Part shown: piece after piece, positions 2,811 through 38,791 of the stretch
How positions within the stretch are numbered: the stretch's first letter is position 1
Layout of the letters: each line of letters begins with the position of its first letter
Source of the DNA: a virus
Lineage: Duplodnaviria; Heunggongvirae; Uroviricota; Caudoviricetes
Virus record (IMG/VR): IMGVR_UViG_2851966386_000003
Span: 1-49,389 of that record
Reading direction: 5' to 3' (one strand)
DNA: 49,389 nt
Position numbers and translations under genes: made by a program
The notes under the pieces: generated by a model
What the model was told of the DNA's origin: nothing
Database searches by the model: none
What the model saw: the letters and a program-made list of their open reading frames with translations, nothing else

Positions 2811-5800
2811 TTATGCCTGTACGCGCAGCGCTTCGAGACGGCGCATATCAAAATCGTTAAGTTCTTCGGTGTAGTCTTCGGTAATCGGCGCCGGCCATTC
2901 GCCAGTGTCAAAACCGTTCGCGATGGCACGCATTGCTTTGCGATATTCCAGCATGCCGAGTTCCAGCAGTTCTTCGGATGCCTCGATGATGGCGATCCAG
3001 TGGTAGTTCTCGTCTTTGTTGACGAATATCCAGAAGAACTGGTCAAGGGCTGCGGTTTCGCAGTACATAGCCGCGCTCAGGTGGTAATCGCGCTCGATGA
3101 TTTCCCGGTGCAATTTGGCGCGCAGGCCTTCCTGCTTGATGTTCCACATGCTGATGGTTTTAAGGTCCGCACCGATGCGCAGGCCGCCCATGTCAATCTC
3201 AAGGTCAGGACGCACACGAACTTCCAGCCCGGTTTCCTCATCAATGCCGAAATAGCTCACCTCGACGGCACGGCTCGGGTGCGTCAACAACTTGCCGGCG
3301 GTCGGGTGGTTCAACAGTGCTTTCTGAATGGCAAGTGCCGTAGCCAGCTGCTGGCGGGTTACCAGCACTTTTCCTTCAGGGTTTTCGCGCCATGCATCCA
3401 GCAACTCATCGGCAAACACGGCATCCGGTTTAACCGATTTCACGGCCTGAATCAGATCCGCCTTAGTACCTGATACTTTCAGCGGCTGCGCCTTCTGTGC
3501 ATCCTGCGCAACCATGTCAGGATTAATAAGTGCCAGCTGTTCCAGTAAGGCATCGCGGCTACCGCTGGTTTTCACCTGGGCGGGCATGGTCGCGTTGTAT
3601 TCCTTGATGCATGCCTTCATAGCGGTGGCAGTTTGCTTCTGTCCGTCTTCAATGCGCTGGAACTCAGCAGGTAAAGACATATAACCTTGGCCGGTTTCTT
3701 CAACTGATGTACCCAAAGGAACCTGGGCGGGCAGGGTCGCGTTGTATTCCTCCAGGAATCTCTTGATGTCATCTGCGCTGAGCAAAACCGGAAGCCCGTT
3801 GTTGTACTCGTCGATAAACGCACGGATCGTCGCAGTCGTGGTGAATGCGCCTTCCGGGATTTCGGGCTCGATGCTGAATTCTTTTTCCAGTTGATCAGGT
3901 TGCAGCGCCAGTGCATGCACTAGATTTCCCATATCCAGAACAGGGGAGCGTACCTTCTGGATGGTCTTGGATACGTGGCGCGCCTCGAAATACATCAGCG
4001 ATACCCGGGCATCTTTAACCATCGTGGAGCTGATGCCGTTAGCGGCGTGGTAGACCTCATTTGGCACGCCTTCATATCGACCAGGCTCGAAATACTCCGG
4101 CCATGCTGGCGCTGCATGTTCAGCCTCTTCCTCTACATCGCTATGAGCACTCTCGGAAACCTGGCTTTTCAGCACTTCGGCGGTAAGATCCGGGCAGCGT
4201 TCAGCCAGTATTTTGCTCATGTTCACGGCAGTTGTTTGCGCAGGAGGCTCATCAGCGCCTTTGCCTGCTGATACCGCATTATCATTTTCGTCTTCGACCG
4301 GCTGAGCCGTTTCCATCTGCACATCGCTGGTGGTTTCCCCGGAATTAGCTGGATGTAATTTTTCTTCTGCAGCGCGCTGGCGCGCCTGGTCCACGATAGA
4401 AAGTGCTGGTGCTGGTGCTGGTGCTGGTGCTGGTGCTGGCTGGCTATCCATCAGACCATCAATCGAAAAAACACCATTGCCCATGTTTGAAACTTCAGGC
4501 TGTTTGGGCTTGGTCAGGTCTTCGGTTATCCACTTCGGATCCGTGGGGTCACTGATACCTTCGACATATTCACCACGTTCGGCGGCCAGAACCTGATTAG
4601 CGTCAGGACGTTTCTTTTGAGCTTCTTTCACCAGTTCGGTGCCAATTACCTGAAAGTCAGTTGGGATAGTTTCCAGGTCAGGTACACCTTCATCTCCATC
4701 GATAGCCTTTTTCACAGCGTCCAGAGTGACGGCGGCAGATGAAACATGACCAGCTTTCTCAAGCGTCTCAGCAGAAGGGGCGTCATGCTTATGCTCGGTC
4801 AGGTTCGCATTGATATAGGTCTGCAGACTTACCGGGAAATGATGAATATCGCTGGTGGCGCCACGAATAAGGGCAAAAATGGCGGCGCGGGAATAATCCA
4901 GGATGCCTGCAACCTTGCGCAGCGCTGCAGACCATTCCTTGAACGGACTTTCTTTCTTCTGGACGATCTCTTTGGCCCGGCGGTGAATTGATGCCGGGAA
5001 ATTGTAGATATCGAAATCCATTGGCATTGTGGCCAGGGCTATTTCTACATCGAGCGTATCAAGGGTATGGGTGTAGTCAGGGTTGCGATCGGTTTTATTA
5101 CTGCCGCCAGCATTCGTAACTGCATCGGTTTTCATAACTGAAGAAATGTAGTTACCGGCAGCCCATTCCCTGGTGAGAATGCCGCGGTCGATCGCGTTCG
5201 TGGCGAACCACAACTTTGCAAACTGAATACGTTTGCCGAGCTCATGCCGTTTCCCTTCCGGGAAGACTTTTTTATTGGCGCTGGTGAATTTCCAGAGCGC
5301 CGGCATATCGTATTTTTTGATTTCATGGACATTCTCGGCGGCCAGAATCAGGTCCTGAACGGCTGCGTTATCAGTGTCCATTTCAAGAACTGACAGCTCC
5401 TGCCGGTGAGGCATGCTGATATGATAAACGTGGCGTTCTTCGGCCATATACTGCGCCAGCAGCTGGGTGCGAAAGGGGAGTTCTGCCACGTTAAAAAGCG
5501 CGCTTGAATCGTTCTGGTATTCATCGCTACCGAAAGTTTCCACGGTCTCACCTTGTGCCGCGTCGACAGTGGTATAGGCATCAACCGGCTCGCCAGTAAC
5601 GGCCCCAGAGGTTACTCCGGCATCATCGTGATGAACATCAGCAGGCGCCTGTCCTGGCTTCAAAGTCCAGGTGCGGCCATCGTCGCCGAGCTGGTAGCGT
5701 TCGCACCATGAGTAATCGAGAACACCCTCCGCCGGCAGGTCGTTGAATACCGGGAAATCGGTGCGAATAGGTTTTTGATAGTCTTTGCCGCGGCCTGTTT

Positions 5801-12806: not shown

Positions 12807-13295
12807 GTGTCAAATTTTCTTTCTTTTATTGGGGTGCTTGTATCAATAGCTAGCTGTTATTATGCATACAAAGCATTCACATCTGCTAAAGAAATATCCT
12901 TTCCGGAAAAAAAGCCTCGTGAAAATATGTGTGTTATTAGATTTTTCTCGAAAGAAGCTAAGGAATTTGAAGGTTTTATAAACAAAAATAAACATAAAAA
13001 AGTGTATTTGAATATTGAGTTTGAAGGAAGTGAATTTGAAATCAATGAGGATGGTGATTCCCGCTGGTTGGTTGTCTGGACTGATACCTTTCAGGAAGTC
13101 CCTAAAGGTGAAAAGCTTGACACTTCAAACTGTAACGGGTATCAATTGACTATCATTCCTCATGAGGATGGGTTTGGTAATTTTCACTGGTTTCGTGGAG
13201 CTTATCAACTATCGGGGCATTTCTATATTGATGGATATAGTGGGCCTTATCAGGGTCTAATGAGTGCTGTTATCTCTGCTGCCAAAACCATATAA
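12807..13295 (+). CDS. Membrane-anchored hypothetical protein, AT-rich cargo gene
   Basis: 162-aa ORF, GTG start 5 nt after AGGAGG; N-terminal TM helix (FLSFIGVLVSIASCYYAY). Confidence 0.5.
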   Translation: MSNFLSFIGVLVSIASCYYAYKAFTSAKEISFPEKKPRENMCVIRFFSKEAKEFEGFINKNKHKKVYLNIEFEGSEFEINEDGDSRWLVVWTDTFQEVPKGEKLDTSNCNGYQLTIIPHEDGFGNFHWFRGAYQLSGHFYIDGYSGPYQGLMSAVISAAKTI

Positions 13296-13380
13296 GCAGT
13301 TTTGATTTTTTTTCATCATTCATAATCAGTACGTCAGCCTGAACAACTAACATTTTTTATCCAGCGCCAAGTGAGGACAC

Positions 13381-13608
13381 ATGGCGCACAAAGTAAAAAA
13401 ACACTCGGATTATAGATTTGTATGCAATAACCCTTCTGATCGTGATGATTGTTCAGGTTGTTGTAGTGAATGCAGTATTTTCTGCGTGGGGCTTGGGCTT
13501 CTACGGCTATCTGATGAAGTCCTGACGATTTTCGCGGGATGCTCAATGCCTCATATCTGTGGTCTTGTTTACTGCGTTATCCAATCTGTTTTCCTGGCAA
13601 AAAAATAA
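13381..13608 (+). CDS. Small Cys-rich hydrophobic protein
   Basis: 75-aa ORF with GAGGA SD; followed by hairpin terminator. Confidence 0.3.
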   Translation: MAHKVKKHSDYRFVCNNPSDRDDCSGCCSECSIFCVGLGLLRLSDEVLTIFAGCSMPHICGLVYCVIQSVFLAKK

Positions 13609-20904: not shown

Positions 20905-21500
20905 AACTACTTACGATACATTCCTCATATGTTCGAAGGATATAACATCTCTCAGGTATCCTGCTTCTGGATGCCGGGAATGTGTACCGCTGGTGGGCTG
21001 GATTCTTGGAGCCTTTGCCCAGCAGTTTCAGGTGATAAAAAACCCCGTGGAGTAAATCCGACAAATTGACGGGGCGCTGCAGAGGCAGCCAATGTCGGAG
21101 TTTAGTCAGATTTCGAGGTGTTTTTCTACTGGTTTGAGAAAAAATGGATGGTCTGACACTACAGGAATTGGCTCATCCCTGAGCTCACGGGTAGAACAGT
21201 AGACTTTGTCATGGCAGAGCAAAGTCATAAGTAAGTGTAGAATGTGTTTCTGATTTAACAAGCGTAGCGAGTGTATGCTTCATGGATTGTACGTCTGTAA
21301 CTTTCATAATATTTCTGCCATTTCAAAATTAAGATACTAGGTAAAACCTTAGGGAATTTAGAGGGTAAGAGAAGCTGTGAACAAAAAAATCTCCTCGCGA
21401 AGCAATGTTTTTCACTTTAACGAAATATATTGTTTGCAATGTGGGTTTTTTAGTTCATCATGTATGCTACATTGAGTTCTTATAAAATGAGCTGCTAATT

Positions 21501-21707
21501 ATGACTGAGTGCAAACTTCCACAACTTCCAGAGTATTATCGATATGGTACTGAACAAATTAACAAGTTGCCTGGGAGTGGGGATGTTTTTCCTCCTGCGG
21601 GTAGTATAATAAAGTCAGTAAGTTTAAATGAAGGTGTATTTGTTTGTGTTCCGGTGCAGCGTTATATACACGGGTTGAATATTTGGGTTGTAGTTGAATC
21701 TTCTTGA
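21501..21707 (+). CDS. Hypothetical small protein (weak)
   Basis: 68-aa ORF in AT-rich region; weak SD. Confidence 0.25.
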   Translation: MTECKLPQLPEYYRYGTEQINKLPGSGDVFPPAGSIIKSVSLNEGVFVCVPVQRYIHGLNIWVVVESS

Positions 21708-21829
21708 TAATGATTTTTGTTTGGTAAAAGTGATTTTTCGTTGGTTTGGTGGTTTCTATTTATTATAAATTCGCTGTTGGAATTTAAAATTAGCATCATT
21801 GCAATGCTTTCAAACACCGTAGAAGGATT

Positions 21830-22024
21830 ATGATGCTAGTGCAAAATAATATTTATAATAATTCAGAGTCATATGCTATTCTTTTGTTTAGTATGTGGCC
21901 TGTCCTTATTGTACTTCTTGTCGTGATATCTTGCGCCTTTTACGGTGTATTGATGCATAAAACTGCAATTTGTTGTTTTCTGTCAGCTATGTTCCTTGGT
22001 GTCGCAGGCTGGTTTTATGGATGA
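21830..22024 (+). CDS. Small membrane protein
   Basis: 64-aa ORF with two hydrophobic helices; AAGGA SD. Confidence 0.3.
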   Translation: MMLVQNNIYNNSESYAILLFSMWPVLIVLLVVISCAFYGVLMHKTAICCFLSAMFLGVAGWFYG

Positions 22025-33771: not shown

Positions 33772-34134
33772 GTGGAACCGCTTTTAGGTTTTATGCTTTT
33801 TGGGCTAGCAGTTATTGTTGTAGCAGTTATTGCTGCAAAACGAAATGGGATAGGTATTGCGTTCCTTTACCTTATTGGTATGTGCGCTATAGGCTTCGGC
33901 TTGGTCGTTTTAGCATCAAATATCACAAATGGAAACGGCGTTATCGCTGGTTTTACTGCATTTATTGCGCCGATTCTTGGTCTTCTTATTGTCTTATCAT
34001 CGTCTACATCTGAACGCCGAGCAGTGCTTAATGGTGAGTCTGGTGAGTATAAAAAATGTCCTTTCTGCGCCGAGCCTATCCGCAAAGAGGCCATTAAATG
34101 TAAACACTGTGGAAGTGATATTGAACAGACCTGA
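33772..34134 (+). CDS. Membrane protein with C-terminal zinc-ribbon (moron)
   Basis: Three hydrophobic helices then CPFCAEPI...CKHCGSD; own terminator; start uncertain (GTG 33772 or ATG 33793). Confidence 0.5.
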   Translation: MEPLLGFMLFGLAVIVVAVIAAKRNGIGIAFLYLIGMCAIGFGLVVLASNITNGNGVIAGFTAFIAPILGLLIVLSSSTSERRAVLNGESGEYKKCPFCAEPIRKEAIKCKHCGSDIEQT

Positions 34135-34235: not shown

Positions 34236-37115
34236 ATGACAGAACAAACCTCCCGCCTGGCCATTGTGATTGATAGCTCCGGGGCAGAAAAGCAGGCTGA
34301 CAATCTCGCAACTGCACTGGTAAAAATGACGCAGGCAGGCGAACGTGCTGTTACCAGTGCAGGGAAAGTGACAAAAGCTACTGATGAAGAAAAACAGTCT
34401 CTTTCTGAACTCTTAGATCGAATTGACCCGGTAAACGCAGCTCTGAATAAACTGGATAAACAACAGCAAGATCTTGCGAAATTCAAATCAAAGGGGATGG
34501 TAGATATCGATACATTCGATCTTTATTCAAAGAAAATCGAGGAAACACGAAACAGGCTAACTGGATTTCGCGACGACCTTGGCAAAACCGGACAATCTGC
34601 CGCACAGACTGCCTTTGCCATGCGCATGATCCCAGCGCAGATGACTGACATTATTGTCGGCTTATCTACGGGGCAGTCGCCGTTTATGGTGCTTATGCAG
34701 CAGGGCGGGCAGTTGAAAGATATGTTCGGCGGTATTGGCCCCGCGATTAAAGGTGTTGGCGGGTATGTGCTGGGGTTGATTAATCCTGTCACTCTGGCTG
34801 CCGCGGCTGTCGGTGTTCTTGGGCTGGCCTATTACAAAGGCTCTCAGGAGCAAGGCGAGTTCTATAAGTCATTGACCCTTAACGGTAATCTGGTTGGTAA
34901 AACCACCGGGCAACTAGCAGATATGGCCGCTCGGGTTTCAGTAGTTGCCAACTCAACTACTGGCGTGACCGCAGCCACACTTAACCAGATAGTTTCATCC
35001 GGGAAAGTGGCTGCAGAGTCATTGGAACGAGTAACAACTGCCGTGGTTGAAATCAGTGAAGCCACAGGCATCGCCACTGAAAAGCTGGTGGGTGATTTCA
35101 ACGACATTGCTGCTGACCCGGTTGCGGCCATTACAAAACTTAACGACCAGTACCACTTTCTGACACTGGCAACCTACAACCAGATTAAAGCACTGCAGGA
35201 TGAAGGTAATCAGCAGGATGCTGCACGGGTGGCTACTGATGCTTACGCCAATGCCATGCAGCAGCGTGCGAACGATATTCATCAGAATTTGGGGATTCTT
35301 GAACGTGCTTGGGACTCGCTTGCTAAAACGGCTAAAGGAGCATGGGATGCCATGCTTGATATAGGTCGCGAGCAAACCGGCACCGAGCGGATCTCTCAAA
35401 TTCGTAAGGAATTAGATTGGATAGATAAGGCTGCAGGCGGGAAGCTATTTTTTGGTGGAAGAAAGGCTGAGCTCGAAGATGAGCTAAATAATCTGCAATC
35501 TCAAATCACAACAGAAGGCGTTTTAACTGAAATAATCAGTAGTCATGACAAAGCTGAACAGCAAAGAATTAAAACGCAGCAGGAAGCAGATCGCGTTAAC
35601 CAGCAATATCTGAGCAATGCGGATAAGCGCAATAAAGCCATTAAGCAGCAAAGCGAGTTCCTGAAGGCAGGCGCAATTACTGCAGAGCAATATTCAAAAA
35701 ATGTTTCTCGTATTAACGAGATGTACAAAGATCCGAAACCACCCAAGACGCCAAAGAGTAAAGCATATACCGAGGACGCAGCAACCCGGCTGCTTGATCA
35801 GATAAACCAGCAGACTGCTGCTATGCAGTCCCAGCTGGATGCCAGTGACAAGCTTAACAGCTCGACACAGGCGCGGATTAAGTTCGAACAGCAAATTGCT
35901 GACCTCAAGTCTAAAACGCAGCTCACCGCTGACCAGAAGTCGATCCTTTCCCGTTCAGATGAAATCCTCCAGGCATATAAGCAGCAGGAGGCACTGCAAA
36001 ATTCCGTAAAAACCCTGGACGATTACCGCAAGATGCAGGAACAGGTAAAGACGAAAGATAAGCGGACCAACGATCTGCTTAAAACCCGTCTTGAACTGCT
36101 GGAGAAGGCCAAAGCAACCGGGCAACTTAAACCCGGTGAATATGCAAAAACGCGGGCAGATATTTATCAAAACACCGATATGCAACTGCCCTCGACGGTT
36201 CGTAATGTTGTAGGAAACCTGACACCCACAGGAGGGCGACTCTCTGGAACTTTTGAGGGGATGCAGGGGCAAATCAACGAATATGATCAGGCTCAGCAAG
36301 AGCTCCAGCGCTGGCTGGCAGCTCAGGAGGAAGCTTATGCGAAGGCCGGTGAAATAACTGCCGAGGGTGAGGCCAGAATGACCTCTATTCGTCAACGTGC
36401 GGCGGATGCAAATCAGGTCATAGAGGCTCAGAAAAACACCATCATATCTGCGGCCACGCAGTCCTTGTTTGATAGCACCGCCGAAATCATGCGAACGGGG
36501 TTTGGTGAGCAATCGGCAATCTACAAGGTCGCTTTTGCTGCGAGCAAGGCATTCGCTATCGCGGACTCGATGGTGAAAATCCAGCAGGCTATAGCAAGCG
36601 GTGCAGTAAGCGCGCCTTATCCGGCCAACATCATCGCTATGGCCTCAATCGCTGCGCAGACTGCCAGTATCGTCTCAAATATCCAGGCTGTTTCAGGAGT
36701 TGGCTTCGCCTCCGGCGGTTACACCGGCCCCGGTGGTAAGTATCAGCCCGCGGGTATTGTTCACAAAGGTGAGTACGTCTTCGACCAGGCTTCAACGAAC
36801 CGGATCGGCGTGTCTCAGCTTGAGGCACTTCGAAATGGCCAACCGCTTGATGCAACTCTGGGGCGTACAGGGTTTGGTACTGGTGTTCAGAACGTTAACA
36901 GCGATAACCGTAGGCAAACAACTGTACACGCGCCGATTAATCAGGAGTTTCATCTCCAGGGTATTACTCCGGAGCAGTTGAGCGCTACACTCAATCAGAA
37001 TAATCGACTGCTTTCCAGGCAGTTAAAAGGTGAACTCACAAAGGAGGTTACCATGCCACAAGGGGCTTTTGGTAACGCTCTAAAAGGAAACTATACACGA
37101 CACGGTCCTAGGTAA
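34236..37115 (+). CDS. Tail tape measure protein
   Basis: 959-aa coiled-coil-rich product in canonical position after G/GT. Confidence 0.85.
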   Translation: MTEQTSRLAIVIDSSGAEKQADNLATALVKMTQAGERAVTSAGKVTKATDEEKQSLSELLDRIDPVNAALNKLDKQQQDLAKFKSKGMVDIDTFDLYSKKIEETRNRLTGFRDDLGKTGQSAAQTAFAMRMIPAQMTDIIVGLSTGQSPFMVLMQQGGQLKDMFGGIGPAIKGVGGYVLGLINPVTLAAAAVGVLGLAYYKGSQEQGEFYKSLTLNGNLVGKTTGQLADMAARVSVVANSTTGVTAATLNQIVSSGKVAAESLERVTTAVVEISEATGIATEKLVGDFNDIAADPVAAITKLNDQYHFLTLATYNQIKALQDEGNQQDAARVATDAYANAMQQRANDIHQNLGILERAWDSLAKTAKGAWDAMLDIGREQTGTERISQIRKELDWIDKAAGGKLFFGGRKAELEDELNNLQSQITTEGVLTEIISSHDKAEQQRIKTQQEADRVNQQYLSNADKRNKAIKQQSEFLKAGAITAEQYSKNVSRINEMYKDPKPPKTPKSKAYTEDAATRLLDQINQQTAAMQSQLDASDKLNSSTQARIKFEQQIADLKSKTQLTADQKSILSRSDEILQAYKQQEALQNSVKTLDDYRKMQEQVKTKDKRTNDLLKTRLELLEKAKATGQLKPGEYAKTRADIYQNTDMQLPSTVRNVVGNLTPTGGRLSGTFEGMQGQINEYDQAQQELQRWLAAQEEAYAKAGEITAEGEARMTSIRQRAADANQVIEAQKNTIISAATQSLFDSTAEIMRTGFGEQSAIYKVAFAASKAFAIADSMVKIQQAIASGAVSAPYPANIIAMASIAAQTASIVSNIQAVSGVGFASGGYTGPGGKYQPAGIVHKGEYVFDQASTNRIGVSQLEALRNGQPLDATLGRTGFGTGVQNVNSDNRRQTTVHAPINQEFHLQGITPEQLSATLNQNNRLLSRQLKGELTKEVTMPQGAFGNALKGNYTRHGPR

Positions 37116-37198
37116 GCTAAACTGCATTAGCTGAGACTTGATTAGGTAGGTAAGTCTAACAATCTGAGTAGGTGCAAGAAAACACAAGGATCTTATTA

Positions 37199-37534
37199 AT
37201 GGAAGCGTTGTTAACATTTACATTTAAAGACTTTATAGCTTTTATGATTCCTCTTTTTATTGGCGGACTTATCTTCAATAGGAGACGTAAACGTAAGGAG
37301 GTCCGAGTGAAGTTTTCATTTCTTTGGCTTGTTTTGATAGTCGGTGGAATTCTTGAAATATGCGATGATATCTACACAACTTATTCCTATAGGCATAATC
37401 ACTTATATAATAATGATACGCTTACAACCGTGTTTAACTATGATTTTGCAAAAATTGTTTTTTGTGGGGTTTTGATTTTTGTTTCTATTGCGCTTCTTCT
37501 TCAGGAGTTGCTTTTAAATAAGCAGTCACATTGA
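37199..37534 (+). CDS. AT-rich small membrane protein (moron)
   Basis: ATG 37199 eight nt after AAGGA; three hydrophobic helices; followed by ~310-bp AT-rich non-coding tract. Confidence 0.45.
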   Translation: MEALLTFTFKDFIAFMIPLFIGGLIFNRRRKRKEVRVKFSFLWLVLIVGGILEICDDIYTTYSYRHNHLYNNDTLTTVFNYDFAKIVFCGVLIFVSIALLLQELLLNKQSH

Positions 37535-37848
37535 CGAATATTGCCTGTCGGCACATTGCCCTTTTTTATTTTGATATGGGGCTGTGCCGAAACAATGTAA
37601 GCTCAAATTAAAGTCAATAAAATTAGTGTATTGATAATGCTGTGTTTTTGATTTCTTTTAGCTCTTGAGATGAGTTGATAAATATATCGCCTTGTGTGTT
37701 TGTGTCGGTTTAAAAAGATTTTTATCTTCGTTAATCTGAACCAAAAAAATCAGAGTTTTCTTCGATTCCATAGTGCTTTATTCTGAAATGAATACCCTCC
37801 TGAGGTTAATGGTGAAATTTTATTCGAGATACTTTACCGGGAGACTGC

Positions 37849-38322
37849 ATGACTGATATCTACTACCCACATGACAGCCTCCCTATGCCATTACAGGAAG
37901 GATACGGATTTCAGCCTGTAAGCCCGTTAAAACGAACCCAGTTAACCACCGGTCGCGCGAGGCAAAGGCGAGCTTTTACGTCCACGCCGACGCAGGCCAG
38001 CATCACCTGGTTTATGGAAACCGATGCGCAGGGCCTGGCGTTTGAGTCCTGGTTCCGTGATGCGTTATCTGACGGGGCTGCATGGTTCATGATGAAGTTG
38101 CAGACGCCGTCAGGCATTAAGTTTTACAAATGCCGCTTCACAGATATTTATCAGGGACCGGTGCTAGTGCCCCCGATTTACTGGAAGTACACGGCGACGC
38201 TTGAATTATGGGAACGCCCCCTTGCTCCTGCCCCATGGGGTAATTACCCGGAATGGATCGTCGGCAGCTCACTGCTGGATATTGCGCTGAATAAGGAGTG
38301 GCCAAAGCATGACGCAGATTAA
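37849..38322 (+). CDS. Minor tail protein (gpM-like)
   Basis: Position after tape measure; loose motif resemblance to lambda M. Confidence 0.5.
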   Translation: MTDIYYPHDSLPMPLQEGYGFQPVSPLKRTQLTTGRARQRRAFTSTPTQASITWFMETDAQGLAFESWFRDALSDGAAWFMMKLQTPSGIKFYKCRFTDIYQGPVLVPPIYWKYTATLELWERPLAPAPWGNYPEWIVGSSLLDIALNKEWPKHDAD

Positions 38323-38791
38323 ACGCCTCTACGCCAGCAGCGGGCCGGAGGTGATCATTGAGACGCTGCAGATCACCATTGGCTCTGATGTTCACTACCT
38401 TTGCCAGGGTTACGACAACATCACGGCGACGACGGAGAACGGCGATACCGTAACGTTTTCAGCCTGTGCGATAGACATTGCGCTGCCGGCACGCAATGCG
38501 GACGGCACGCAGGACCTCAAATTTGCCTTGTGCAATATCGATGGTGTTGTGTCCACGGCGATCCGCAATGCGCTGGCTAACCGTCTGTCTGCATTTCTGA
38601 CGTACCGGCGTTATATCTCCACGGATTTAGCGGCCCCTGCGGAAGTGCCGTATACGCTGAAAATCAAGTCGGGCTCCTGGACGGCGACAGAGGTGCAGAT
38701 CACTGCGGGCTACATGCATATCCTCGATACCGCCTGGCCGCGATACCGCTACACGCTCCCTGTATTCCCCGGACTGCGTTATATCAGCTAA
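38309..38791 (+). CDS. Minor tail protein (gpL-like)
   Basis: Position. Confidence 0.5.
   Translation: MTQIKRLYASSGPEVIIETLQITIGSDVHYLCQGYDNITATTENGDTVTFSACAIDIALPARNADGTQDLKFALCNIDGVVSTAIRNALANRLSAFLTYRRYISTDLAAPAEVPYTLKIKSGSWTATEVQITAGYMHILDTAWPRYRYTLPVFPGLRYIS

Follow-up and report, generated by a model that had tools for sequence, protein, structure and literature searches.

An AT-rich membrane-protein moron of an uncharacterized family between the tape measure and distal tail genes of a lambdoid Klebsiella prophage

Introduction

The Imm protein of phage T4 is an inner-membrane protein that blocks genome entry. Exclusion proteins of the P22 SieA type, which are encoded by prophages, also reside in the inner membrane and block genome entry while leaving the outer-membrane receptor untouched (PMC10883804, PMC3594210). 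The moron product gp15 of phage HK97 is an inner-membrane protein that imposes a tail-dependent block on genome injection and has homologues in enterobacterial chromosomes, and other morons located in late operons, including lom and bor of lambda and cor of phi80 and N15, have a deviant base composition, are variably present and benefit the lysogen (PMC3594210). Here, we describe a gene, ORF111, that lies between the tape measure protein (TMP) gene and the first distal tail gene of IMG/VR record IMGVR_UViG_2851966386_000003, whose 49,389 nucleotides (nt) were analyzed over their whole length and are referred to as the window. ORF111 had been singled out in an earlier note, made from the sequence of the window, as AT-rich acquired cargo coding for a membrane protein. 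The analysis reported here indicates that it is a genuine and well-delimited moron of an uncharacterized family, within established phage biology, and that analogy with known systems makes it a reasonable candidate for an exclusion protein of Klebsiella.

Results

Variable presence of ORF111 and contents of the slot

The presence of ORF111 was surveyed in 80 IMG/VR loci encoding a 157-amino acid (aa) protein at least 96% identical to that of the window, the product of the first distal tail gene. In 44 of these loci ORF111 is missing and the TMP gene, which ends in an alternative tail termed C2, adjoins the next gene, and 33 full-length loci carry the tail found in the window, termed C1, together with an intact ORF111 of 97-100% identity. 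The linkage of TMP tail and ORF111 is complete, with C1 present in 33 of 33 loci with the open reading frame (ORF) and C2 in 44 of 44 without it. GenBank phage records include three with ORF111 and three without it, although the latter are 91-96% identical otherwise, and in these the TMP stop codon overlaps the ATG start of the gene that follows. Sequence similarity to the insert-less phages ends at 36953/36954, 54 codons ahead of the TMP stop codon, and restarts exactly at the ATG at 37849, which defines a variable block of 36954-37848. The C2 tail of the insert-less phages has 54-55 codons, the same length as C1, and cannot be aligned with it, and the two tails are joined to TMPs that are otherwise 90-96% identical and go with the same tail-tip protein (96-99% identity). 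C1-like tails that diverge further (59-67%) accompany other cargo. The left part of the block and its right-hand neighbor are organized as follows:

36954-37115, plus strand: final 54 codons of the TMP gene, allele C1, inherited in one block with the cargo
37116-37198, plus strand: leader of ORF111, including its Shine-Dalgarno (SD) sequence and the left end of an approximately 485-bp cassette
37199-37534 (stop codon 37532-37534), plus strand: ORF111, 111 aa, three predicted transmembrane helices, supported by the ORF list, hydropathy and the ratio of nonsynonymous to synonymous substitution rates (dN/dS)
37849-38322, plus strand: first distal tail gene, 157 aa, phrog_384 'virion structural protein', with its own SD sequence GGGAG at 37839-37843

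In distant relatives, including ST13-OXA48phi12.4, KpF5, vB_VIPKPNMC05 and many Pseudomonas phages, the TMP gene and its downstream neighbor are 0-21 nt apart or overlap, and tight coupling of this junction is therefore ancestral. The interval can also hold other genes. In the bat-gut phage Flyfo siphovirus Tbat2_3, which has a C1-like TMP tail, the slot between the TMP and tail-tip genes (L019, positions 3304-5518) contains four cargo genes encoding a 190-aa hypothetical protein, a YafO toxin, a 118-aa hypothetical protein and an SmpA/OmlA lipoprotein, with two terminator-like hairpins ahead of the tail-tip gene. The interval from TMP to the first distal tail gene is thus a cargo slot in a family of lambdoid prophages of Klebsiella, Raoultella and Citrobacter with a D3-like tail module. 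ORF111 itself has the hallmarks of a moron, being extra DNA between genes that are adjacent in relatives, variable in presence and deviant in base composition, and the comparison of sequences strongly supports its assignment as accessory cargo. The proposal of the earlier note that the gene was acquired is borne out by its variable presence in near-identical prophages, its foreign composition, the occurrence of the same family on plasmids and at unrelated chromosomal loci, and the other cargo found in the slot. The comparison with related prophages that the note had suggested was carried out on the loci above. Universal conservation at this position together with a structural role in virions, which the note had named as contradicting its reading, is not what is seen, as the gene is missing from 44 of the 80 loci and, in K. 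aerogenes, persists in a decayed prophage that has lost TMP.

The ORF111 gene and its predicted protein

The description in the earlier note of a hydrophobic 111-aa, three-helix ORF preceded by the SD sequence AAGGA proves accurate, with the SD sequence at 37186-37190, 8 nt ahead of the ATG at 37199, and three hydrophobic peaks at about residues 12-26, 39-55 and 83-106 on the Kyte-Doolittle scale. Its markedly AT-rich character is equally evident, as the fractional guanine-plus-cytosine (GC) content is 0.330 in ORF111 (0.31 at third codon positions, GC3) and 0.344 in the tract that follows it (37535-37848), compared with 0.50 in TMP, 0.53-0.56 in the downstream tail genes (GC3 0.60-0.70) and 0.505 in the whole window. 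Positions 37199-37848 fall in the bottom 0.34% of 650-bp windows by GC (z = -3.07), and the window-wide minimum begins at 37175-37186. An ORF of at least 111 codons starting with ATG occurs in 15 of 5000 shuffles of 37116-37848, and pairwise dN/dS values of 0.10-0.28 among nine homologues indicate that ORF111 is under purifying selection.

The loop connecting helices 1 and 2 is rich in basic residues (RRRKRK, eight K/R in total), and the loop connecting helices 2 and 3 comprises 28 residues, is net acidic and contains the invariant segment IYTTYSYRHNHLYNNDTLTTVFNYD (residues 58-82). Because of the positive-inside rule, ORF111 is predicted to adopt an N-out/C-in orientation, in which the RRRKRK loop would be cytoplasmic and the invariant loop periplasmic. 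The sole full-length family match is phrog_16178, of unknown function. Profile searches of Pfam, NCBIfam and PDB returned nothing beyond sub-threshold matches to transmembrane proteins, none of the defense models of PADLOC-DB 2.0 matched at E <= 10, and a literature search yielded no paper on the protein.

A small family on phages, plasmids and chromosomes

Among 5.8 billion protein clusters, 44 relatives of ORF111 were found. They include proteins of K. pneumoniae and K. variicola (95-100% identity), a 109-aa protein of K. aerogenes (76%) that occurs on 362 contigs, a Raoultella protein (76%), and proteins at 61-68% on unassigned metagenomic or assembly contigs (P0031, P0033, P0036 and P0037). 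When 1.84 billion cluster representatives were searched exhaustively with a profile, 13 matched, with no annotated relative among them, and a scan of one genome per species added members from Rahnella (three species) and Cedecea at 50-52% identity. The family was absent from 5,426 complete E. coli genomes. The members range from 100 to 113 aa and all share the invariant loop IYTTYSYRHNxLYNND..TT.FNYD, of which the most distant proteins still retain IY.PYSY.HN.LY, and the gene is AT-rich in every context, with a GC content of 0.30-0.36 compared with 0.47-0.57 for the host loci.

The members occupy a wide range of locations. In Raoultella, the homologue lies in the same slot of a prophage with about 75% identity over its whole length, and a prophage remnant of K. 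aerogenes retains an intact ORF111 next to a TMP gene that has shrunk to a C-terminal fragment of ~100 aa, with the next tail genes partly deleted. An intact 111-aa copy, missing from the PLSDB gene table, resides on conjugative MOBH plasmids of 279-401 kb in Klebsiella, Raoultella and Enterobacter. Chromosomal copies in Rahnella, Cedecea and others lie at unrelated sites, where the neighbors are a dcp-like peptidase gene, a ptsG-like gene, HlyD/ATP-binding cassette (ABC) exporter genes and a major facilitator superfamily (MFS) transporter gene, and distant members are located in accessory islets that also encode a RES toxin, HicAB, an Mrr-type restriction enzyme and TolA_C- and TonB_C-domain lipoproteins. 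The family is very small, confined to Enterobacterales, and mobile among prophages, conjugative plasmids and chromosomes. The variety of carriers and the retention in a dead prophage therefore argue that ORF111 serves the host or the mobile element and not the virion.

Two of these locations have further features of their own. The K. aerogenes remnant (L006-L009) is a widespread cryptic element of the chromosome that has lost its head and tail genes and keeps, besides ORF111, immunity-type genes of the Colicin_immun and Colicin_Pyocin families, a homologue of the theta subunit of DNA polymerase III and a Wzy_C/pectate-lyase pair. In the islet represented by L106-L108, two small lipoprotein genes (4024-4773), one with similarity to the TolA C-terminus and the other to the TonB C-terminus, lie directly upstream of a distant ORF111 member, and HicAB, an N6/N4 methyltransferase and an Mrr-type nuclease are also encoded; these lipoproteins may be envelope-level decoys against colicins or phages.

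A dead opposite-strand gene downstream of ORF111

The 314 bp following ORF111 (37535-37848) had been described as about 310 bp of AT-rich non-coding sequence. The tract is indeed AT-rich and contains no intact ORF of at least 40 aa, but it is not a featureless spacer, since it contains a pseudogene on the minus strand. The following elements are found at the borders of the cassette and in the tract:

37112-37121, no strand assigned: 10-nt direct repeat GTAAGCTAAA, overlapping the TMP stop codon
37548-37590, no strand assigned: stem-loop with arms CGGCACA and TGTGCCG and a T-run in the loop, between ORF111 and the minus-strand remnant
37597-37606, no strand assigned: second copy of the repeat, GTAAGCTCAA, at the right cassette edge, with a spacing of 485 nt
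37597-37793, minus strand: pseudogene remnant of a ~75-aa gene, from alignment to intact genes and to a Raoultella pseudogene
37800-37824, no strand assigned: invariant 25-mer CTGAGGTTAAYGGTGAAATTTTATT, leader or promoter-proximal sequence of the minus-strand gene, located 25 nt ahead of the next tail gene

Comparison of 37520-37870 with the Raoultella and K. aerogenes lineages reveals collinear, faster-evolving DNA together with the 25-mer, which the K. pneumoniae, Raoultella and K. aerogenes lineages share without a mismatch and which is unique in the window. A motif search of IMG/VR with the 25-mer identified 85 loci, including L119 and L147, in which the 23-nt core is exact and which combine the motif with the 157-aa gene and a C1-like TMP tail in the absence of ORF111. 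The gap of 320-345 bp in these two loci codes on the opposite strand for an intact gene of 75-76 aa, whose SD sequence and ATG adjoin the 25-mer, and a GC-rich hairpin lies between its stop codon and that of TMP. The same intact opposite-strand arrangement is present in prophages of K. pasteurii (L200), Raoultella and C. koseri (L198). In the Raoultella locus that bears ORF111, the intact 75-aa proteins have a tblastn match with E = 2e-14 to a gene inactivated by an ATG-to-ATA change, a frameshift and stop codons. A direct tblastn search of the window spacer with the intact 75-aa proteins gave no significant match, and the pseudogene in the window is called from its nucleotide collinearity with the Raoultella pseudogene, its alignment to the intact genes and two recognizable peptide segments (IHFRIKHYGIEE compared with MDFRTKHDGTEG, and DIFINSSQELKEIKNTALSIH compared with DRFIDSRAELNTEIKKNALEFL, of the intact proteins). 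The lesions of the window remnant comprise a change of the start codon from ATG to ATT (37793-37791), frameshifts, a 14-nt deletion and stop codons.

Relatives tolerate further damage in the tract, including a 97-bp deletion (37650-37746) and the insertion of an insertion sequence (IS) of the IS5 family at ~37658-37661. An intact 75-aa gene and ORF111 were not found together in one locus, and the 75-aa protein has no Pfam or PHROG family. Small ORFs in 37535-37848, including the 53-aa 'hypothetical protein' of MK416022, were considered as genes and rejected, as their frames break between near-identical relatives. The persistence of the 25-mer past the death of the gene could be due to a residual antisense promoter, as the minus strand of the 25-mer includes TAAAAT, or to a translation or standby element that serves the next tail gene. 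In the IS5-family carrier (IMGVR_UViG_2663763079_000006; L037, 2615-3810), the element codes for a 326-aa transposase and leaves ORF111 and the downstream tail genes about 1.5 kb apart.

The cassette and its expression signals

The extent of the ORF111 cassette is indicated by a chromosomal homologue (L014), which shares with the window the DNA from about 37122/37159 to 37608, that is, ORF111 with ~80 bp upstream and ~74 bp downstream. The 10-nt repeats, with the consensus GTAAGCT[A/C]AA, match the edges of this cassette; they are not conserved in Raoultella or K. aerogenes, and the bracketing may be due to chance. The stem-loop at 37548-37590 has a folding energy of -27.6 kcal/mol (z = -3.5) and is kept in 20 of 20 sequence variants, with its arms conserved in L014, and shows no clear covariation. 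It may mark a transcript 3' end or terminator, a role that is only plausible because no U-tract follows the stem. Consensus and position weight matrix scans found no convincing sigma-70 promoter upstream of ORF111, the best promoter-like sites on the plus strand fall inside or after the gene and are unremarkable for AT-rich DNA, and Rfam returned nothing at E <= 1 in 36900-38000. The suggestion of the earlier note that the cargo has its own regulatory region is therefore not upheld in that form: the 314-bp tract is a decayed ~75-aa gene with its leader, in which a deletion and an IS are tolerated, and neither a convincing promoter nor a U-tract after the hairpin is present.

The window accordingly contains two layers of cargo, an older opposite-strand gene of ~75 aa (37597-37793 and its leader) and a newer AT-rich cassette of ~485 bp (~37122-37606). 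From these comparisons, the most economical history would have three steps, in which the slot was initially empty, the opposite-strand 75-aa gene then entered a lineage with the C1 TMP tail, and the ORF111 cassette later landed between the TMP stop codon and the 3' end of the 75-aa gene, which would subsequently have decayed. As a separate observation, the cassette differs less than its surroundings between K. pneumoniae and Raoultella (37199-37848 compared with L010, 6001-6663), with a synonymous divergence (dS) of 0.59 in the ORF and ~70% identity in the spacer, and dS values of 1.5-2.2 or saturation in the flanking tail genes; this lower divergence reflects either a more recent exchange or an estimate depressed by the AT-biased composition.

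The tail operon and other features of the window

Comparison with GenBank phage records identifies the window as a lambdoid temperate siphovirus prophage of Klebsiella. Its nearest record, MK416022 (97% identity), encodes an integrase next to sapC, a CII protein and a Q antiterminator and has its holin-lysozyme genes in a separate cassette, and the tail module is of the Pseudomonas D3/PAJU2 type according to Pfam, PHROGs and the distant relatives. The tail genes are arranged in the order:

TMP (TMP_2/TMP_4)
157-aa protein (phrog_384)
DUF1833 minor tail protein
126-aa minor tail protein
J-like protein

The distal tail genes are closely packed, with an overlap of 14 nt between 37849-38322 and 38309-38791 followed by a gap of 9 nt and an overlap of 4 nt. 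The statement that ORF111 interrupts an otherwise tight tail operon is thus correct for the downstream genes, which overlap or nearly abut, but does not hold upstream of TMP, where a second interruption occurs at 33772-34134. This second low-GC ORF (about 0.40-0.46; plus strand), directly upstream of TMP, codes for a 120-aa membrane protein with about three hydrophobic helices and, at the C-terminus, a CxxC...CxxC zinc ribbon, and is named 'membrane protein' or 'zinc ribbon domain-containing protein' in relatives. It occupies the position of HK97 gp15 relative to TMP, and TMP therefore has membrane-protein cargo on either side, at 33772-34134 and 37199-37534.

Several other sites show insertions or unusual composition. 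Three relatives have ~185 bp of extra DNA between the 157-aa gene and the DUF1833 gene (L003, 4084-4263; L004, 3885-4064; L005, 4815-4994), which ends in a terminator-like hairpin with a T-run (AAGGTCACCTTCGGGTGGCCTTTTTTATT); the counterpart in the window (the 38308-38320 junction) is a gene overlap. A C. koseri-type prophage contig (L199, 2423-2935) has a DUF4823 gene between the DUF1833 gene and the 126-aa minor tail gene, which represents a further cargo slot. Elsewhere in the window, GC troughs at 21247-21896 (0.334), bordered by small ORFs including a gene for a 64-aa hydrophobic protein at 21830-22024, and at 12812-13461 (0.363) are likely to be additional cargo. Product names of the tail region are misleading in MK416022, MK416013, MK448237 and MK448234, which label the 126-aa minor tail protein a 'nitrite transporter', the J-like protein a 'kinase' and the 157-aa protein an 'alkanesulfonate ABC transporter permease', and use 'glutamate 5-kinase' and 'electron transfer flavoprotein' for other genes of the morphogenesis region.

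Discussion

Possible functions of ORF111

In the proposed mechanism, ORF111 would be made in the lysogen to the benefit of the host rather than the virion, and would insert into the inner membrane in the N-out/C-in orientation with its invariant Tyr/Asn/His-rich loop toward the periplasm. The most likely benefit would be superinfection exclusion at the step of genome injection, where ORF111 could disturb the inner-membrane channel formed by the tape-measure and tail-tip proteins of an incoming phage, or mask a host inner-membrane factor that they need; such a mechanism has been proposed for HK97 gp15, to which ORF111 is unrelated. This function is suggested because a mobile-borne inner-membrane protein that is kept in a dead prophage and encoded beside TMP resembles the HK97 gp15 moron. 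On the basis of this analogy, and with the cargo framework included, superinfection exclusion is the single most likely function of ORF111, although it is put forward tentatively. Cargo in the late operon would be tolerable, and no holin is missing, because MK416022 has a Q antiterminator and a separate holin-lysozyme cassette. A more specific version, in which ORF111 founds an unrecognized family of mobile inner-membrane injection blockers that act via the periplasmic loop and the C1/C2 linkage reflects matching of excluder and TMP, is conceivable but doubtful.

Several points weigh against the exclusion function. ORF111 has no homology to known exclusion, immunity or defense proteins in PADLOC, Pfam, NCBIfam or BLASTP comparison with gp15, and the AlphaFold2 model, built from a 10-sequence alignment, shows three helices at low confidence (predicted local distance difference test score, pLDDT, 57.6). 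As there is no recognizable promoter and no canonical terminator, expression of ORF111 in the lysogen is an assumption. The linkage of C1 to ORF111 is adequately explained by physical adjacency alone, because the C1 and C2 tails cannot be aligned and the tail and cargo are thus inseparable by recombination, and a loop that is invariant in different hosts and kinds of element would suit a conserved host target without pointing specifically to phages.

The latter point leads to the strongest competing explanation, in which ORF111 is a product of lysogenic conversion or an accessory membrane protein that modulates a conserved host transporter, sensor or envelope process, comparable in principle to small membrane proteins like SgrT and AcrZ, and is useful under some stress. 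From Klebsiella to Rahnella and Cedecea, and on phages, plasmids and chromosomes alike, the loop predicted to be periplasmic does not vary, chromosomal copies stand alone beside housekeeping genes such as those for a dcp-like peptidase and a ptsG-like phosphotransferase system (PTS) EIICB protein, and the dead prophage of K. aerogenes still has its copy. As no consistent neighbor or operon partner is seen across loci and the patchy distribution (13 of 1.84 billion representatives and none of the E. coli genomes) suits conflict genes better, such a modulator is possible but less probable than an excluder. An orphan immunity protein against a membrane-targeting, pore-forming bacteriocin is unlikely. 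E1-type colicin immunity proteins are inner-membrane proteins of ~110 aa with three transmembrane helices that are encoded on mobile elements, and ORF111 agrees with them in size and helix number and in being an AT-rich, mobile gene, which in the K. aerogenes remnant is accompanied by the nuclease-colicin immunity genes Colicin_immun and Colicin_Pyocin; however, it matches no Pfam family of colicin or microcin immunity, no bacteriocin gene was found near any examined locus, and its conservation sits in an extramembrane loop instead of the helices. To a similarly small degree, ORF111 might be a membrane-damaging toxin of abortive infection or addiction that is repressed by H-NS, for instance, or by antisense transcripts of the minus-strand promoter region. 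A protein of 111 aa with three helices differs from type I toxins, which are shorter than about 60 aa, have one transmembrane helix and come with an overlapping or adjacent antisense RNA; Rfam is empty in the region, the adjacent gene is a pseudogene and no partner is present, and ORF111 stays intact where the 97-bp deletion and the IS insertion have occurred nearby and is commonly found as a stand-alone copy on chromosomes and plasmids. These observations are set against the small size and hydrophobicity of the protein, its AT-rich locus, the persistence of the 25-mer of the dead minus-strand gene, and the toxin-antitoxin genes that adjoin distant members (a RES toxin with an HI1420-downstream antitoxin-like gene, and HicAB).

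A role in the lytic cycle, either as a holin- or antiholin-like factor in lysis timing or as a factor that stops progeny from injecting into lysing cells, is very improbable. Class I holins have three helices in the N-out/C-in orientation, and the topology predicted for ORF111 would agree with this class; the gene also lies on the strand of the late operon and would be read through under Q antitermination. Most close relatives, deposited as phages, are nevertheless without ORF111, MK416022 has its holin-lysozyme cassette about 19 kb upstream, no holin family of Pfam or PHROGs is matched, the C-terminus is short and weakly charged, and the gene survives in a tail-less remnant, on plasmids and on chromosomes. 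The least probable explanation, a fragment of a larger decayed gene such as an Acyl_transf_3 O-acetyltransferase, stems from a weak Pfam match to positions 187-264 of PF01757 (E = 1.6e-4, 21.3 bits) and was rejected, as the score is under the gathering threshold of 31 bits, acyltransferases of this O-antigen/OafA type are polytopic proteins of at least about 330 aa, the ORF111 family stands alone at 100-113 aa in every lineage down to ~30-50% identity, the dN/dS values denote purifying selection, and the flanking DNA belongs to a different, opposite-strand gene.

Should ORF111 indeed act as an inner-membrane excluder of superinfecting phages, it would constitute a new defense determinant. Its presence in about 40% of this type of K. 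pneumoniae prophage and on large conjugative plasmids would then bear on the prediction of host range in Klebsiella phage therapy, and the C1/C2 dimorphism of the tape measure offers a natural experiment for TMP-specific exclusion. The slot provides an example of layered cargo turnover with four states, namely empty, with the opposite-strand 75-aa gene, with ORF111 and the dead 75-aa gene, and with a four-gene cargo, and it cautions that AT-rich 'non-coding regulatory' DNA beside a moron may be an older, decayed moron.

Comparison with known systems

The outer-membrane proteins and lipoproteins encoded by lambda lom and bor and by cor differ from ORF111, which is predicted to be a polytopic inner-membrane protein of an uncharacterized family, but the genes have in common their position as cargo among late or tail genes, a deviant composition and variable presence. 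The E1-type colicin immunity proteins are alike in size and helix count, without a family match, and the conserved part of ORF111 is a loop. P22 SieA and T4 Imm are inner-membrane proteins, as ORF111 is predicted to be, but share no homology with it in Pfam, PHROGs or PADLOC and are encoded at different genomic positions. Homology of ORF111 to HK97 gp15/YebO was considered and rejected, with a BLASTP E value of 12 and no match to the YebO family of Pfam at E <= 0.1. HK97 gp15 is a protein of 62 aa with one helix that is encoded upstream of TMP, in contrast to the 111 aa, three helices and downstream position of ORF111. Both are nevertheless AT-rich inserts of the tail operon, directly beside TMP (GC 0.33-0.34 compared with about 0.55) that code for a small protein of the inner membrane, as predicted in the case of ORF111, and the two genes resemble each other in the hairpin that follows them, in their absence from related phages and in having homologues outside prophages in enterobacterial chromosomes.

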